A stretch of 64,000 bases of DNA from Sedimentisphaerales bacterium. Its GTDB lineage: Bacteria; Planctomycetota; Phycisphaerae; Sedimentisphaerales; SM23-30. The stretch is from the NCBI GenBank assembly GCA_963666285.1, contig OY762711.1. One strand, 5' to 3'. A program made the position numbers and the translations under genes. The notes beneath the pieces are model-generated. The model did no database searches, was not told the DNA's origin, and saw only the letters and a list, made by a program, of their open reading frames with translations. Shown piece after piece: positions 6,333-64,000 of the stretch. The stretch's first letter is position 1; every line of letters begins with the position of its first letter.

Positions 6333-6897
6333 GATATTCAGTTTTTATAGAACGTTTTTATGTTAAAGACGAAGTTTTCGTCGTTGTTAAGTTTTATAGA
6401 GAGCTGATTTTTGCTGGTACTCATTTTTTGTCGGCTCTCTACAATTGGACGGTATGTCGAAAGTGCGCTGATTTATTTGGCGGGATGGTTGGCCCGAAGA
6501 TTTGTAAAGGGTTGGGGGAATGCGGGATAAGAATTTTGGAATAATTTTATTTTCGCGTTTTGGTGGTTGTAAAAACGAGATGATTTTTTTGAGAAAATCA
6601 GTGGTCAGGAATCAGGTTTCAGATGCCAGGGAAGGTTGCTCGCTACCGCTCGCGGCTGATTGATGGGTGACGGGAGGTAAGCGGAATATGTACGGGGCAG
6701 CGCGGCGGGTGGACGGCGGTGAAAAGGTAAATGGATTTGAGCGGCAGCGAATTGCGGGCCGCGGACAGTATACGGCGGAACGTTGAATGGGTGCGGCGGT
6801 ATACGGACGGGAACGAAGCGGAAGCGGGAAGACAGGTAAAAAGTAAGAGGTAAGAGGTAAGAGGTAAGAGGTAAGAGGTAAGAGGTAAGAGTTGAGG
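6333..6897 (+). repeat. Large non-coding element, copy A left part
   Basis: Colinear similarity with 62901-~63410, e.g. GGTATGTCGAAAGTGCGCTGATTT and GCTCGCTACCGCTCGCGGCTGATTGATGGGTGACGGGAGGT shared exactly. Ends in a GTAAGAG heptamer array (6843-6891). Confidence 0.9.
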
Positions 6898-6963
6898 TGT
6901 CTGGTCCTGTGATAAGTTGTCACATTATAGATTTAATGTTTTAACAAATAACAGGAGACAACA

Positions 6964-7383
6964 ATGTTGGTAAGTAAACGAACTTATAATCGCTACAGCG
7001 AAGCCTTTAAATTACAGGTGGTAAATGATCTTGAATCTGGTAAGCTAAGCAGTATTTATGAGGCTAATTCCCGCTATGGGATTTCTGGTACAACAACAGT
7101 AAAGAGTTGGCTAAGAAAATATGGCCGTAACCATTTGATACCAAAGGTGATACGCGTGGAAAAACTAGATGAACAAGATCATGTAAAGAAGTTAGAATCA
7201 GAGATTAAGCAGCTTAAAGAAGCGTTAGCAGACAGCCATATAGAGAATATTGTAAGTGAAGCCAGGTTTCAGGTTATTTGTAAAGAATACGGGCTGGATC
7301 CCGAGGAGTATAAAAAAAAAGTCGATACCAAACGGTTCAACAAGCGTCCGAGGCAACCGTTGAAAAGAAAGAGGAAAAAATAG
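6964..7383 (+). CDS. IS3 transposase OrfA (HTH)
   Basis: RYSEAFKLQVV...YGISGTTTVKSWLRKYG helix-turn-helix followed by a coiled coil. Confidence 0.92.
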   Translation: MLVSKRTYNRYSEAFKLQVVNDLESGKLSSIYEANSRYGISGTTTVKSWLRKYGRNHLIPKVIRVEKLDEQDHVKKLESEIKQLKEALADSHIENIVSEARFQVICKEYGLDPEEYKKKVDTKRFNKRPRQPLKRKRKK

Positions 7384-8198
7384 CGATAACTTCCTTATGC
7401 AAAGCTGTTGGCATGAGTCGTCAGAATTATTATAAATCACATAAAGTTCGGCGCAGGCGGCACTATGAAAAAGACCTGATAATATCTTTGGCCAGGCTGG
7501 AAAGATCATTGCAGCCTGAGATGGGTTGCAGAAAGGTTTTGAAGCGTATAAAGCCCAAACTGGCAAAAGCCGGTATTAGTATAGGGCGAGATAGATTTTA
7601 TGAAACGATGTCAGAAGCAGATATGTTGATAGAGCGTAAAAAGCGAAGTGTGACAACGACAGACAGTCGTCATAACTTTAAGACTTATAAGAATATACTG
7701 AAAGATGAAGAGCTTACAGGAGCCAATCAGGCCCTGGTAAGTGATATAACGTACATATATACAGATGAAGGATTTATGTATCTGTCGTTGATAATGGATG
7801 CATTTAGTCGCAAGATAGTTGGCTATGACTGTAGTGATAGTTTGGAAGCAGAAGGTTGTTTGCGTGCATTAACAAAGGCGATAAAGCAATTGCCCAAAGG
7901 TAGTAATACGATACATCATTCAGATCGTGGCAGTCAGTATTGCTGCCATAGATATATAGATAAGCTTAAAAGAAATGGGCTGCGAGTTAGTATGACCGAA
8001 GATAATCATTGTTATGAGAATGCCCAGGCCGAGAGGTTAAACGGTATATTGAAGCACGAGTATGGATTGAAGAATACGTTTAAGAAAAAAGCTCATGTTC
8101 ATGCTGCGGTTAAACAGGCGATAGAACTGTATAATACCTGTCGTCCACATTTTGCTTTGGGATATCGTGTGCCTGAGGAAGTGCATATGGCGGCGTGA
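7314..8198 (+). CDS. IS3 transposase OrfB (DDE), reached by -1 frameshift
   Basis: SDITY, HHSDRGSQY and AERLNGILKHE catalytic triad. The -1 frame is open from the A9G run (7312-7321); first ATG is at 7413. Confidence 0.92.
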   Translation, partial: KKSRYQTVQQASEATVEKKEEKIAITSLCKAVGMSRQNYYKSHKVRRRRHYEKDLIISLARLERSLQPEMGCRKVLKRIKPKLAKAGISIGRDRFYETMSEADMLIERKKRSVTTTDSRHNFKTYKNILKDEELTGANQALVSDITYIYTDEGFMYLSLIMDAFSRKIVGYDCSDSLEAEGCLRALTKAIKQLPKGSNTIHHSDRGSQYCCHRYIDKLKRNGLRVSMTEDNHCYENAQAERLNGILKHEYGLKNTFKKKAHVHAAVKQAIELYNTCRPHFALGYRVPEEVHMAA

Positions 8199-8309
8199 TA
8201 TATTCCTCCGTTCCGGTCGCCCTTCGGGCTCCCTGCACTACGGAATATATCATCAAAAAACAATAGTAAATAGAAACGGAAAGTGACAACTTTAAATCAG
8301 GACTTGACA

Positions 8310-8860
8310 AGGAGTCCGCTTCGCGGACAGCTTATTTTAAACGGCTAACGCCGAGCGACGGAAGGTCGTTAGAGATTAGAGCAGCTAAACAGCGGCGAGC
8401 GACCAGCTGCCAGCAGCGAGCAGATAAACTTCGTGCTGCGCACTGGGGCACATCATTGGACAAGTCCAATGATGTGAAGGTGTCGCTATGCGACCTGTTT
8501 TAAATAGTGTGCCGACCTTTAGTGCTTAGCATTCTCAGGGGTGAAGGATGTATTAAAAAACGGAATGAAATTGAAGAGTGCGGTGATATAATAACGAGTG
8601 CGTGGTGGGGTTAGGAAAGAGGTGCGGCGTGAAGGGGATTTTTAAGATTTTAGCGTAAGTTGTTATTTATGGATATTGGGCAGACCAGATGCCGCGGAGC
8701 GGCATCAAAGAGTAAAGTGTAAAATAAAAAGTGTAAAGGAGGTGTTCGCCTGGCGGCTCACGGCTTGTTTTAAAGGTGACGAGTAAGTAAAGTTTATATC
8801 AATATTGTTTGCACCTGAAGGATGGGAAGAGTTAGAAGTTAGAAGTTAGAAGCGAGAAGA
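8310..8860 (+). repeat. Large non-coding element, copy A right part
   Basis: Matches 63477-63870 (e.g. GGCACATCATTGGA..AGTCCAATGATGTGAAGGTGTCGCTATGCGACCTGTTTTAAA and TAAAATAAAAAGTGTAAAGGAGGTGTTCGC). Ends in AGTTAGA heptamers near 8830-8850. Confidence 0.88.
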
Positions 8861-9133
8861 AAGAAGTTTTAAACGGTTCGTTCAGGGCATGGGTGACGGT
8901 TTATCTATCTTAATGTTTTTTCTGGCGGGGATGGTTGTTCTGGTCGCAGGCAGGGACGGGTGAGCTGCAATGTCGTTAACGATAGCGGTTGGTTGTGATA
9001 GGGACTGGCTTTTTTGGCAGATGTGGCTATAATAACCTGTTATGGTGCGAATGCGCACTTTTGACTGTTCAACGTTATCGGCAAAGGGTTGTTCAGTCTG
9101 TTTTTAAAATTTGCGAAGTACGAAAGTTTATTT

Positions 9134-59706: not shown

Positions 59707-60018
59707 AAAGCATATATAGTTTTGTTAGATTGATGGCATTTTTAAGCTATTTTTCGAAAGTATATTAAATTCAAAGTGTTGCAGGAAGGCCCTTTTAGGC
59801 GATTTACCAGAGGCACTTCGTTATTGCACCTTAAAAACTACGAAAGTAAGCAGCTGTTATATTATCGATATTTACCCCAATTATAGCTTTATATTAGCGA
59901 AAAAGGTATATCCGGTTAATATAGTTCCGATAACATGCGTTTTTTGTTGCATTAGAATATATCTGTTATACAATATATTACGAATTAAGTATTAGTTATT
60001 GTTACATTAGAAGTAATT

Positions 60019-60504
60019 ATGGCAGAAGAAGTTGACATAGACAAAGAATTCCCGATGCCCGAAGAAGAGTCAAGCGGCGGAGGCGCAATTAGTGATGAGG
60101 ACGCAGAGGCCCTGGCCCTTCAGGCAATGGCCGAAGCGGGACTTGCAGATAAGCCTGAAGTACCGTCATTGCCGGACTTTTCCGGGATGCTTTCAGAAGC
60201 CGCTGAAAGCAGTATCGATATTCTGAATGACGTTGAGCTGGATGTAAAAGTCGAGTTGGGTCGTTCGGATATGGAAGTCGATCAGGTTCTTAAGCTAACT
60301 GCCGGTTCGGTAGTAGAGCTTGACAAGCTTGCCGGTGACCCGGTTGATATTCTTGTCAATGATCAGCTAATTGCCAGAGGCGAAGTTTTGGTCATAAATG
60401 ATAACTTCTGTGTTCGTGTCAATGAGATAGTTCCGGGTATCAGCGAGCTTCAGCCGTTCATGGATGATGCCAAGGGTAGAAAACGGGCCGGCCAAGAGCA
60501 ATAA
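60019..60504 (+). CDS. fliN: Flagellar motor switch protein FliN
   Basis: DVELDVKVELG, GSVVELDKLAGDPVDILVN and GEVLVI (SpoA domain). Confidence 0.95.
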   Translation: MAEEVDIDKEFPMPEEESSGGGAISDEDAEALALQAMAEAGLADKPEVPSLPDFSGMLSEAAESSIDILNDVELDVKVELGRSDMEVDQVLKLTAGSVVELDKLAGDPVDILVNDQLIARGEVLVINDNFCVRVNEIVPGISELQPFMDDAKGRKRAGQEQ

Positions 60505-60601
60505 CTAATTTTCTATCGTTTATATTGTATATTACTTTTGGCTGAAATCAGCCCGGTGACGTGGATGTGTTGCCGATGTATGCGTTATTGGCGGAGCCGA
60601 T

Positions 60602-61486
60602 ATGATACGGATATATTCAGACAAGCCTATAAAATCCATATTTATATATGTGATTATCCTATTCCTTTTCTGCCCAGTATTTGCGCAGTCTCTTTCCTCT
60701 AAGCCAGAATTAAAAACCGATCAGAAGGTAACTGACCAGGAAATGCAGTTAATGCAGCAGTTTGCATCTGATAGCAGTTCTGAATCGGGCTTAAAATCAG
60801 CTGACAGACAGGAACGCAAGCAATATACCCCGCCAAGTGGTACTGACAAGCTCGATAATATTGCTCAGAAAGAAAGTCAGACGATCAGTAAAAAATCTGA
60901 CACCACATCGATAGGTTCTTCAGATTCTATTTCCGGAGCAGATAATTCTAAAGGTTCTAATAGTGACGGTAATAAAACGACGTCCAGAAAAACGCCTGGT
61001 ATATGGCAGCCATTATTTTCTCTTTTGGGAGTAATTACAGTTATTGTTGTCATGGCGTGGCTGATAAAGAGGTTCTTTCCAAGCCAGGTGAATTCGGGTG
61101 TTGGTGATGTTATCCAGGTAATCGGCAGAGTTAGTATTGATAATAGGAATACTTTATGCCTGGCGAAGTTCGGTAATGAAATAGTTCTACTGGGTGTTGG
61201 TATTAATGGAGTAAATCTAATCGATAAAGTTTCTGACCCTGATAAGATTGCTTCGCTACTCGGCAAGATCGAAGCGGCGCGGGTGAGCTCGATCTCTAAA
61301 TCATTTTCCAATGTTTTCAAAAATGCACGTGGAGATTACCTGGACGATAACCTTGAAGATGAGGAGATAATCGAAGAGTATGATGACGAAGGTTCGGTTG
61401 AAAGCCGTAAGGATGATGAGTTAGCCGGCCTTTTGAATAAGGTAAAGGGATTGAGCAAGCTAAAACAAAATAAACGTGATCATTAA
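60602..61486 (+). CDS. fliO: Flagellar biosynthesis protein FliO/FliZ with long N-terminal extension
   Basis: TM segment followed by IQVIGRVSID.RNTLCL...LLGV; lies between fliN and fliP. Confidence 0.8.
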   Translation: MIRIYSDKPIKSIFIYVIILFLFCPVFAQSLSSKPELKTDQKVTDQEMQLMQQFASDSSSESGLKSADRQERKQYTPPSGTDKLDNIAQKESQTISKKSDTTSIGSSDSISGADNSKGSNSDGNKTTSRKTPGIWQPLFSLLGVITVIVVMAWLIKRFFPSQVNSGVGDVIQVIGRVSIDNRNTLCLAKFGNEIVLLGVGINGVNLIDKVSDPDKIASLLGKIEAARVSSISKSFSNVFKNARGDYLDDNLEDEEIIEEYDDEGSVESRKDDELAGLLNKVKGLSKLKQNKRDH

Positions 61487-62361
61487 TGACGAGAATAGTA
61501 ATAACAATAATTTTATGTCTGGGTTCGGTTCAGATGGCATTTGGCCAGGTTGAATCAGTTACGGGTGAGACAGTTGTATCACCTGATACTGTGGTAGACT
61601 CTAATACAACGATAAATATAAGCGATCCCGGACAGATGATTCAAGATGCAGTCAAGCCTGAGCGGCTGTCTGTAACGCTGGAAATCGTTATCTTGATGAC
61701 GGCAATTGCTTTGGTGCCGTCGATCCTGGTGATGATGACGAGTTTTACCCGGATAATTGTGGTATTGGGATTACTTCGTCAGGCGATGGGTACTCAGCAG
61801 CTGCCGCCGGCACAGGTGATAACGGCACTGGCGTTGTTTATGACGTTTTTTATAATGGGTCCGACCTGGAAAGATATTAACCGGGACGCGATTCAGCCAT
61901 ATGTTAACCCGCCGGAAGGGCAGGCACCAATCGGCCAGGAAGAGCTATGGTCGAGGACAATTGCCCATTTCAGATCGTTTATGATCAGGCAGATAGAAGC
62001 GACCGGTAATACAGATGATGTATATATGTTTGTTTCTTTTGATGAGACCTCGCCAGAGCTGGGCGAGAAGCTTCGTAATGGTACGCTGCAATGGCAGGAT
62101 GTGTCGACGGCTGCGTTGATCCCATCGTTTATGACCAGTGAGCTGAAGCAGGCTTTTCTTATGGGTTTCTATATCTATCTGCCGTTCCTGGTAATTGATA
62201 TGGTGATAGCTTCGATCCTTATGTCGATGGGAATGATGATGCTGCCGCCGGTGATGATTTCTATGCCGTTTAAGCTTCTGCTGTTTGTGATGGTTGACGG
62301 CTGGCATACGGTTGTTGGAACGCTGATCCACAGTTTTACGAGTAACCCGCCGCCAATTTAA
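61486..62361 (+). CDS. fliP: Flagellar export gate protein FliP
   Basis: MTSFTRIIVVL, SELKQAF, MGMMMLPP and LLLFVMVDGW motifs. Confidence 0.98.
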   Translation: MTRIVITIILCLGSVQMAFGQVESVTGETVVSPDTVVDSNTTINISDPGQMIQDAVKPERLSVTLEIVILMTAIALVPSILVMMTSFTRIIVVLGLLRQAMGTQQLPPAQVITALALFMTFFIMGPTWKDINRDAIQPYVNPPEGQAPIGQEELWSRTIAHFRSFMIRQIEATGNTDDVYMFVSFDETSPELGEKLRNGTLQWQDVSTAALIPSFMTSELKQAFLMGFYIYLPFLVIDMVIASILMSMGMMMLPPVMISMPFKLLLFVMVDGWHTVVGTLIHSFTSNPPPI

Positions 62362-62508
62362 GTGAATAAATAAAAGTGAAAAGCTGCGGTGTTCGTCCGC
62401 ATTATGCGGTCTCACGCATAGTTTAAAGTTACGCTTGATTGGTAGGTAAGTCGCGGAGCGGCAGGCGAGTTTAGAAATAATTCATTGCGAAAGGAATGGA
62501 AATATATC

Positions 62509-62772
62509 ATGGATGAAGGTGCTGTATTAGATCTTGGCAGGCGAGTTTTGATACTTACACTGACGATCTCGTTTCCGATGCTGATAGTCGGGCTGGTTGT
62601 TGGTGTTACGATCTCGATCATCCAGGCGGTAACGCAGATCCAGGAAATGACGCTGACGTTTATTCCGAAGATATTCGCGATGTCGTTGGCATTGATATTT
62701 TTTATGCCCTGGATACTTAACCAGCTGACTAATTTTGCCTTGGAGATGTTTGGCCCGATGGCAGTGCCGTAG
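62509..62772 (+). CDS. fliQ: Flagellar export gate protein FliQ
   Basis: QAVTQIQEMTLTFIPK motif. Confidence 0.97.
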   Translation: MDEGAVLDLGRRVLILTLTISFPMLIVGLVVGVTISIIQAVTQIQEMTLTFIPKIFAMSLALIFFMPWILNQLTNFALEMFGPMAVP

Positions 62773-62900
62773 CCTTGCACCAGACCGCTGCGGAGGCAAC
62801 CAGACATAGTCTGGCTAGACCTTGCTTCGCTTGGTGACGAATTGAGATTGGAATGTTTAATGGGCGACTCATTCTGAGTCGCATAAGTTCAAAATACTTC

Positions 62901-64000
62901 GATATTCAGTTTTTCAAAGAGCAAAATTTATTTATTATTAAGACGTAATTTTCGTCGTTGTTAAGTTTTAGAGAGAGCTGATTTTTATTGGTTCTCTTTT
63001 TTTGTTAGCTCTCTACTATTGGATGGTATGTCGAAAGTGCGCTGATTTTTTGGGCGGGATGGTTGGTTTGGAAGTTTGTAAGGTGTTGGGAGTAAGCGGG
63101 ATAATAATTTTAAAGATTTTAGATTTTCGCGATTTGGTGGTTGTAAAAACGCGGTGATTTTTTCGAGAAAATCAGGGGCCAGGGATCTGGTTTCAGGTGT
63201 CAGGGAAGTGCTCGCTACCGCTCGCGGCTGATTGATGGGTGACGGGAGGTGTGCGGAAAGGTAACGGGTCAGCGCGGCGGGTGGACGGCGTTGAAAAGGG
63301 TAACGGATTTGAACGGAGGGGAATTGCGGGCCGCGGGCAGTATACGGAGGAACATCAAACAGGTACGGAAGCCCAAACACGGTGATGGAGCGGAGAAGCG
63401 GAAAACGCTTCTGAAGTATAAAGTATAAAAAATCAAGAGCTACCAGATAACAGCAGCGAGCGAGCAGCCAAGCTGCTAGAGATTAGAGCAGCTAAACAGC
63501 GGCGAGCAGCCAGCGGCCAGTGAAGAGGAAATACGTGCTTCGCACTCTGGCACATCATTGGATGAGTCCAATGATGTGAAGGTGTCGCTATGCGACCTGT
63601 TTTAAACGGGTTCGGCGAGGCTAATTGATTTATAAGTGAGAATGACGGGGTGAAAGAGGGGTAAAAAAACGGAATGAAATTGAAGAGTGCGGGGATGTTA
63701 TAACGGGTGCGGGAAGGATAACGGCGGGTTGGGGATTTTGCGGAAATTGGCGTAAGTTGTTATTTTTGGTTTGTGGGCAGACCAGATGCCGCGAAGCGGC
63801 ATCAAAGTGTAAAGGGTAAAATAAAAAGTGTAAAGGAGGTGTTCGCATTCGCGGACGGTTTGTTTTAAACGGCTAACGCCTAGCGACGGAGGTCGCTGGA
63901 TAGTTGATAGGTGAACAGCTAAATAGCAGTGAGCAATCAGCAATCAGCTGCGAGCTGTCAGGAAATACGTGCTGCGCGAACGGCCGAAGGTCGTTAGAGA
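62901..64000 (+). repeat. Large non-coding element, copy B (runs off the window end)
   Basis: Colinear with 6333-6830 and 8370-8775, plus extra permuted modules at 63835-64000. Confidence 0.9.

Follow-up and report, generated by a model that had tools for sequence, protein, structure and literature searches.

The two copies in the window

The window, by which we mean the whole stretch of 64,000 nucleotides that was analysed, corresponds to positions 416001-480000 of contig C1 of the genome (G000), and it contains two copies of a noncoding repeat, A and B. Copy B is located after fliQ and extends to ~64050, past the end of the window. It starts with optional left-hand modules (62800-62901, plus strand), short palindromes which are also present in about one third of the copies, followed by the conserved head of ~483 nt (62902-63387, plus), which is G-rich and C-poor on this strand and has ATATT at its left end. 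The word at this end (62902-62922, minus), which we take to be boxA-like, is similar to a word upstream of the 23S gene, and many copies deviate from it. Words similar to the left end of the head were also seen at G000:C1:3851016, 3246279, and 6150259, as the reverse complement of the 23S-upstream word, at the 23S gene and at two other loci. The head contains two short conserved hairpins (62942-62956 and 62972-63014) without any two-sided change, and an array of RCGG words with a period of ~10-10.5 nt covers 63224-63401 (plus). The tail comprises the hairpin modules Y, K (63551-63578), and J1 (63535-63597, plus), a second G-rich module, M2, with more RCGG words (63620-63770, plus), motif L (GGRCnnWCCAGA) with a hairpin (63775-63803, plus), and heptamer and hairpin modules from 63804 to 64000 (plus) that run on to the end of the copy. 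The element was rejected as the cause of the split between fliQ and fliR, because the same split occurs in two congeners, and neither of them has an array after fliQ.

Copy A spans 6334-~8900, with a DUF3616 gene on one side and a miaB-like gene on the other. Its head (6334-6815, plus) carries an RCGG array with a chain of 6 words in phase (6652-6827, plus) and is followed by 8.3 copies of the heptamer AGGTAAG (6834-6891, plus). An IS3-family passenger with TG...CA ends and a 3-bp AGG duplication is inserted at a module junction (6898-8309, plus), and the remaining tail (8313-8900, plus) consists of modules J3, Z, Y, K, J1, M2, L, V, J2, P, and E, with an AGTTAGA run at 8830-8868. After removal of the IS3, copy A had been described from the letters alone as colinear with copy B, and this was borne out by two blocks, one of 457 nt with 84% identity and one of 413 nt with 78%; the global alignment gave 70.5% over 1143 columns, the middle modules being unlike. 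Neither copy encodes a credible protein, as had been stated: the two overlapping open reading frames had no Pfam match. A coding remnant was also ruled out by pN/pS values of 0.75-0.92 in all six frames, calculated with 30 heads, and such genes as do occur within copies belong to passengers (IS3, IS110, or introns).

A dispersed family of recombining copies

The element was thought to occur twice, but the search of the genome found 30 full heads and many partial loci; two degenerate heads (1420038 and 3076592) among the 32 matches are left out of all counts of 30. Loci with at least two tail modules numbered 113. Each copy is formed by the ~483-nt head and a reshuffled tail of hairpin modules and heptamer runs. 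Identity between heads ranges from 71 to 92%, with a median of 83%; no two of the 30 are nearly identical, the closest pair having 92%, and their consensus is composed of 170 G, 145 T, 102 A, and 66 C. The left end of the head is sharp while the right end of the element is variable. In the tail, the modules form a variable chain with an AGGTGT junction at most joins; their order and content differ freely between loci, and within one locus they share the same orientation, palindromes excepted. At G000:C1:2346500-2348200 a head is abutted by an inverted tail, and the skew there goes from negative to positive. No clear bias was seen in the orientation of the element with respect to flanking genes or replichore.

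The proposal of a dispersed, noncoding family without a name stands, with 30 copies, no Rfam match, and bits of 24-44 nt at most in the relatives. By BLAST the family was multicopy in G000; among 40 relatives only matches of 24-44 nt were obtained, in 4 genomes. An exact 23-nt word of the head had 0 matches in metagenome and viral contigs, a set from which near genomes may be absent. Terminal inverted repeats were not seen, in agreement with the sequence-only reading, and the right end is variable; the left ends of 29 heads shared no fixed target word, the left flank being only weakly biased. The family does not have the traits that define a MITE or another nonautonomous IS, namely, terminal inverted repeats, target duplication or a fixed target word, recent copies that are nearly identical, and an autonomous element whose ends match theirs.

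The differences between copies are arranged as a patchwork. Linkage among the 30 heads fell from an r2 of 0.61 under 5 nt to 0.03-0.05 past 80 nt, which is what 30 unlinked rows would give; four-gamete violations reached 88-96%, and multibase alleles occur in all combinations across the copies. We infer from this decay and from the shared alleles that short patches are exchanged between copies, at a scale under ~80 nt.

Mobilisation by an HUH enzyme or a reverse transcriptase had also been suggested, and it was not supported, since Y1 and reverse transcriptase genes do not adjoin heads. The genome has 5 Y1 matches, 0 beside a head, and the 3 loci that were read by eye had no modules; the two intact reverse transcriptases belong to group II introns inserted into the same kind of repeat. 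A Rep_trans-like IS was tried as a partner and rejected, for BLAST matched it to no head (matches over 120 nt). The mobile elements are passengers of the arrays described below: 8 of 9 IS3 copies, 5 of the 9 copies of one IS110, and both intact group II introns were located tailward of an array, at a distance of no more than 3.5 kb. Two group II introns (G000:C1:910500-912700 and 5395300-5397400) look identical and start with GAGCG, not GTGCG; the one at 910500-912700 sits in a run of AATTAAG heptamers. Two different IS110 elements (G000:C1:714450-716050 and 5746000-5747700) are inserted in the same AACCACGAA-type 9-mer tail module.

Hairpins and RNA structure

The hairpins named in the sequence-only reading were found as written, and the claim that differences between copies often fall in their loops was correct for the pair A and B; for the family it was not, variation being 0.137 in paired columns against 0.123 in unpaired ones. 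Its G-U swaps turned out to be one-sided changes at 2 of 14 pairs, which scored no better than shuffles. Two head stems are 98% paired, and the fold beats column shuffles only in the first ~180 of 483 head columns. The consensus energy was just -37.8 kcal/mol over 503 columns, no head pair (0/14) changed on both sides, and covariation was 0.065 versus 0.068 when shuffled. In the K hairpin the stem is changed in 9 of 38 copies; seven of these changes break the pair, two lead to G-U, and 0 are compensated. The exception is a two-sided change from C-G to T-A in 2 of 53 L hairpins. Moreover, in three hairpins the loop is also met as its exact reverse complement (CAAG/CTTG, flipped in 3 of 38; AGAAT/ATTCT, 4:4), which points to flipping at the DNA level.

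Taking these results together, the palindromes are real and selection on an RNA fold is not supported. That the element could be a large structured noncoding RNA, or be mobilised through RNA, would be favoured by the well-paired head stems, the first ~180 columns, the two L hairpins with a two-sided change, and the 8 promoter-like sites of copy B, where 2.7 were expected. The weak fold, the uncompensated stems, the flipped loops, and the free variation in module order and content speak against it, and we consider it most improbable. The sequence-only reading could not match the element to a named family, and Rfam gave no match in the window either; with 8 copies at E<=1 the sole match was a neighbouring tRNA.

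One-sided purine-skew domains

Bacterial strand asymmetry is normally put down to one origin and to transcription. We calculated the purine skew at four-fold sites as the residual after subtracting the gene-strand and replichore means. On the tail side of the heads, between 2 and 20 kb, this residual was +0.20 and positive at 30 of 30 heads, whereas the maximum of 5000 random placements was 0.138. On the head side (-20 to -3 kb) it was -0.004, with 12 of 30 positive; this side is flat past ~4 kb, and a ramp lies inside that range. The element is, accordingly, a polar DNA site at the start of a one-sided purine-skew domain. The sign of the tail-side skew did not depend on gene direction, and the skew was alike for elements oriented with or against the main fork. 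It decays from 0.24 at 5-10 kb to ~0.10 at 40-60 kb, and no headful-type step was seen in this decay. Upward steps were also called independently, and 21 of the 30 heads are within 8 kb of one, the chance being 24% for each. In the window, the domain of copy A covers 4000-32000 (plus), with values of +0.29 to +0.34 at 4-16 kb, 0.07-0.22 up to 32 kb, and ~0 after 36 kb. The onset of the domain of copy B is at 60000-64000 (plus), where the skew is +0.18, followed by +0.48 and +0.27 in the next 8 kb past the window.

It could be argued that the repeat is an ordinary mosaic of the NIME or BIME kind, kept alike by gene conversion, and that the skew is unrelated to it or an artefact of gene calling. 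Its hairpin-plus-spacer modules, the targeting by insertion sequences, and the recombination are as in NIME arrays, as far as these are described in PMC1797815. The skew, however, is one-sided, has the same sign in both gene directions, and follows the orientation of the element in all 30 copies, while the same method found no domains in two congeners; this explanation is largely refuted and highly unlikely.

Regarding composition, at 4-9 kb on the tail side all 30 copies had G>C, and at 9-16 kb on this side 29 of the 30 had A>T. On the array strand the signature is G +0.07, A +0.02 to +0.04, T -0.06 to -0.08, and C -0.03, and two-fold sites on this strand indicate A>G (0.485 versus 0.39), with C>T to a slight degree. 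Ordinarily, the leading strand in G000 has G>C and T>A, whereas the domains have A>T, so that the process is a different one. At silent sites the domain asymmetry is larger than the replichore signal, and Glu, Lys, Met, and Arg are 12-18% more frequent in array-strand genes than in opposite-strand genes.

Considering the mutational spectra known from E. coli, it has been described that under SOS induction the lagging-strand template is biased towards A in transitions at A:T pairs and towards C in those at G:C pairs, and that transversions favour the purine on the leading-strand template (10.1101/2020.01.15.908301); that study itself leaves undecided which strand is miscopied. If the fork leaves the array tailward, the signs of the domains match those of SOS-induced E. 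coli, a match of composition, because domain skew reflects equilibrium composition as opposed to polarised mutations. Singleton changes inside the heads gave no purine gain (39 of 189 pyrimidine versus 47 of 245 purine sites), and in paralog pairs, prophage copies, and IS or repeat singletons the transversion flux was not reproduced, the sites being few or inconsistent.

Phased RCGG arrays

The last third of the head contains RCGG words with a period of ~10-10.5 nt, whose spacings peak at 10/11, 21, 31/32, 42, and 52, and RCGG columns are better conserved than their neighbours (0.94 versus 0.86). A strand-specific scan of G000 found 70 intergenic arrays, that is, 261 in total minus 191 coding arrays, and 38 of the 70 do not have this head. 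It was seen that 34 of these 38 headless arrays likewise start domains, and the coding arrays are located inside domains, with skew on both sides. In a joint fit, the amplitude was positive for 66 of 68 merged arrays, versus 49% of random sites, and R2 was 0.41, compared with 0.24 for random and 0.26 for flipped arrays. Between facing arrays the skew goes from +0.19 to -0.15, crossing zero, and between back-to-back arrays it is near 0. Arrays lie on the leading strand in 37 of 70 cases, and the amplitudes of those with and against the main fork were 0.255 and 0.256; a Ter-like barrier was rejected, since amplitude did not differ with orientation. Of the 70 arrays, 55 are followed by motif L, on the array strand. 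Amplitude depended neither on the number of RCGG words nor on motif L, and positive amplitudes were obtained as well for three head fragments lacking an array.

A separate repeat of ~190 bp, with 145 copies, is located inside the domains. Its polarity agreed with that of the domains in 81 of 82 cases within 50 kb downstream of an array and in 87 of 87 in strong domains. It starts with a small GTGCG hairpin and is oriented 2:1 against the leading strand; the type copy is at G000:C1:5956650-5956836 and a truncated copy lies in the window at 9045-9131 (plus).

The arrays may be polar, Chi-like stop sites for AddAB, so that breaks on the tail side would be resected up to the array and refilled with errors. 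The genome has AddAB-type genes, the 3' tail left when AddAB stops would account for the 4-kb ramp and the patchwork, and geometry and scale are like those of break-induced hotspots in E. coli, which according to PMC3607216 decay to ~60 kb through resection and gap filling. A Chi-type signal on a single strand needs no helical phasing, however, and array amplitude is the same with and against the main fork. Chi of B. subtilis is AGCGG, and Chi words are enriched on the leading strand genome-wide; outside the arrays, RCGG is not skewed to the leading strand (GCGG ranks 54 and ACGG 119 of 256 words, AGCGG 356 of 1024). We regard this possibility as unlikely.

Domains and arrays in other genomes

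A pattern of four array units had 41 matches in G000 and 1 in the reversed control. Across 120 genomes of the order it had at most 2 matches in 119 and 7 in the remaining one, G084, and in a GTDB-wide scan the matches listed were mostly chance matches in GC-rich DNA. The two congeners had no array pattern and no domains in the 200 kb analysed of each, and the SD of their 10-kb skew bins was 0.07-0.08 versus 0.17-0.22. G084, an order member of another family, has stronger domains in 777 kb (SD 0.32), with sharp upward steps and a correlation of 0.77 between the skews of genes on the two strands, its genes being BLAST-supported frames. Phased RCGG chains were not enriched at its 8 steps (p = 0.21), and the link between arrays and domains is therefore confined to the G000 data. 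The G084 domains, found on contigs C1, C2, C3, C5, and C9 (L267-L306), have purine and G skew irrespective of genes; by eye there are G-rich arrays or mosaic repeats at some steps, and a G-rich intergenic mosaic at C9 ~55.4-56.6 kb.

Since G084 has domains with no demonstrable link to arrays, many upward steps of G000 have no head nearby, and amplitude is unrelated to array size, the domains could be started by another small site or protein, the repeats and arrays being passengers that gather or are remodelled there. Against this, 30 homologous heads at unrelated loci are all at the start of a domain and in the right orientation, versus the 190-bp repeat, which lies inside domains. This too seems unlikely, slightly more so than the stop-site proposal.

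A different multicopy element with phased RCGG words is present in Saccharicrinis (G132) and 5 of 40 relatives. This Bacteroidota element had no clear domain in 8 copies, evaluated by raw skew that includes the replichore component. It is an intergenic element of ~290 nt (L179:1380-1660; G132, G137, G142, G143, G154, and G156), in which an AT-rich part is followed by a phased RCGG array and an inverted phased CCG array, and its copies have patchwork differences by eye.

Enzymes, phage contigs, and other genes

DinB and UmuDC are encoded in G000 and MutL is present, together with RNase H, RecG, and AddAB-type genes. Relatives without domains have genes for UmuC, RNase H, RecG, AddAB-type, and NUDIX proteins as well, and in the families searched no protein acting in trans on the arrays was found, which counts against a dedicated start-site process. 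Three related phage-like contigs of ~65 kb, C2-C4, one of them (C3) with an ORF of 5491 codons, were discarded as the source of the arrays, as none of the three carries a phased array. A second protein with an FtsK domain, 1291 aa long, is encoded at G000:C1:4299789-4303661. A prophage-like region of ~30 kb occurs twice on C1 (966869-997909 and 2111654-2142580), with 85-94% identity. The 16S (motif at G000:C1:1184147 and 1451590) and 23S (3848414) genes are seemingly unlinked, the latter after tRNA-Ile and tRNA-Ala, and a cluster of nine tRNAs (G000:C1:5226832-5229866) is near rtcA, rtcB, rtcR, a release-factor homologue, and a PcfJ-like gene.

Terminases and translocases typically have phased repeats at their binding sites. 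It is conceivable that the arrays are origins of one-way DNA export, either packaging by a gene transfer agent or a clt- or oriT-like process, with tracts recombining into relatives with strand-specific errors. For Streptomyces, chromosome mobilisation by Tra proteins has been proposed to start from sequences of the clt type (PMC3429521), and the second FtsK-like gene would fit this. However, no coupling protein was found (PF10412 and PF02486, for a coupling protein or Rep_trans, had no match in the genome), the three phage contigs lack a phased array, the decay of the skew has no headful step, and damage to single strands alone would raise T, which falls. Export is accordingly rather improbable.

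Proposed mechanism

Taking into account the polarity, the composition, and the patchwork, the reading we prefer, with a probability of roughly 0.5, is that the element is the start point of extra, one-way, error-prone DNA synthesis that proceeds from head to tail over tens of kb; the one-sided skew would then likely exist because error-prone copying starts at the repeats. The helically phased RCGG array would be the binding site of a putative protein, and a nick, a break, or priming would occur in the element or up to ~4 kb before it. A fork, or a strand-replacement reaction, would then move tailward with the G-rich strand as the leading-sense strand. An SOS-like copying spectrum on the G-rich strand (A>G, C>T, and pyrimidine>purine) would let the skew accumulate over evolutionary time and fade with distance. 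The 3' ends from inside the element may invade other copies, leaving patches under ~80 nt, the patchwork, and the flipped hairpin loops, and insertion sequences, introns, and the second repeat may insert during the same reaction and adopt its orientation. In its broader form, to which we give an even chance, the proposal is that ~70 phased RCGG arrays, 30 of them inside the repeat, are a class of polar chromosomal sites and each launch one-way mutagenic resynthesis over 20-60 kb, so that the chromosome would be divided into mini-replichores, the copies remixed, and the orientation of mobile DNA set, with a similar process in at least one other genome of the order.

The depth of contigs over copy B was flat, 24.6-38.1 in run X1 (one locus, contigs, and one condition), which speaks against steady over-replication there; any extra synthesis would be rare, conditional, or nonamplifying. 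In run X3, whose library kind is unspecified, exact-match strain contigs had very uneven depths of 6.6-134, with patchy flanks and the element far above its head-side flank, and these values carry no weight here.

What is observed in G000 is a second asymmetry, which starts at dozens of defined noncoding elements and shifts nearby amino-acid use. If the proposed synthesis takes place, the arrays would give oriC-independent synthesis, or else a programmed repair of breaks, sequences that can be named, and they would constitute a natural case of regional, directional mutagenesis, testable by moving one element. Such processes have so far been without defined sites, as presented in PMC4287441.

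Comparison with known systems

In a literature search covering few subscription journals, we found no publication on bacterial repeats that start one-sided skew domains. The repeat resembles NIME and BIME arrays yet fails their defining features. NIME, formed by dRS3 and RS elements, are also noncoding, with short palindromes, variable spacers, and IS insertions, and they are proposed recombination substrates (PMC1797815); in our module inventory the recombining, IS-attracting mosaic is present and a 20-bp inverted repeat of the dRS3 type is not, whereas a fixed 483-nt head is, and all the modules run one way. The part of PMC1797815 considered here mentions no one-sided flanking skew. The tails contain heptamer runs like the tandem intergenic heptamers (TAACTGA) of PMC4679880, which here are just one module type.

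REP, BIME, and REPIN elements have hairpin modules and many intergenic copies, are targets of IS3 and IS110, and have a RAYT partner. The repeat shares the first three of these properties with them, but it is much longer and restricted to the species, no RAYT is flanked by its hairpins, and it has a polar flank effect.

With respect to extra forks from sites other than oriC, the proposal is close to cSDR and oriK, and the G-rich strand could form R-loops; oriK, as described in PMC4287441, has no defined sequence and needs the loss of RNase H or RecG, both of whose genes are present here. Run-off replication in Bartonella also sends extra forks from a non-oriC site, but from one bidirectional phage origin and with amplified DNA (PMC2697382), which was not seen at copy B in run X1. 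As polar, short, repeated words, RCGG can be compared with Chi of AddAB or RecBCD and with clt/clc of Streptomyces Tra (PMC3429521); unlike Chi it has no genome-wide leading-strand skew, and unlike clt/clc no conjugative partner was found for it. There is also a likeness in scale and sign with break and SOS mutagenesis in E. coli, whose strand-biased substitutions have signs matching those of the domains and whose break-induced hotspots, as reported in PMC3607216, similarly fade within tens of kb. In E. coli the hotspots extend to both sides of an engineered cut, whereas the domains of G000 are one-sided, start at ~70 natural sites, and are visible in the composition of the genome.
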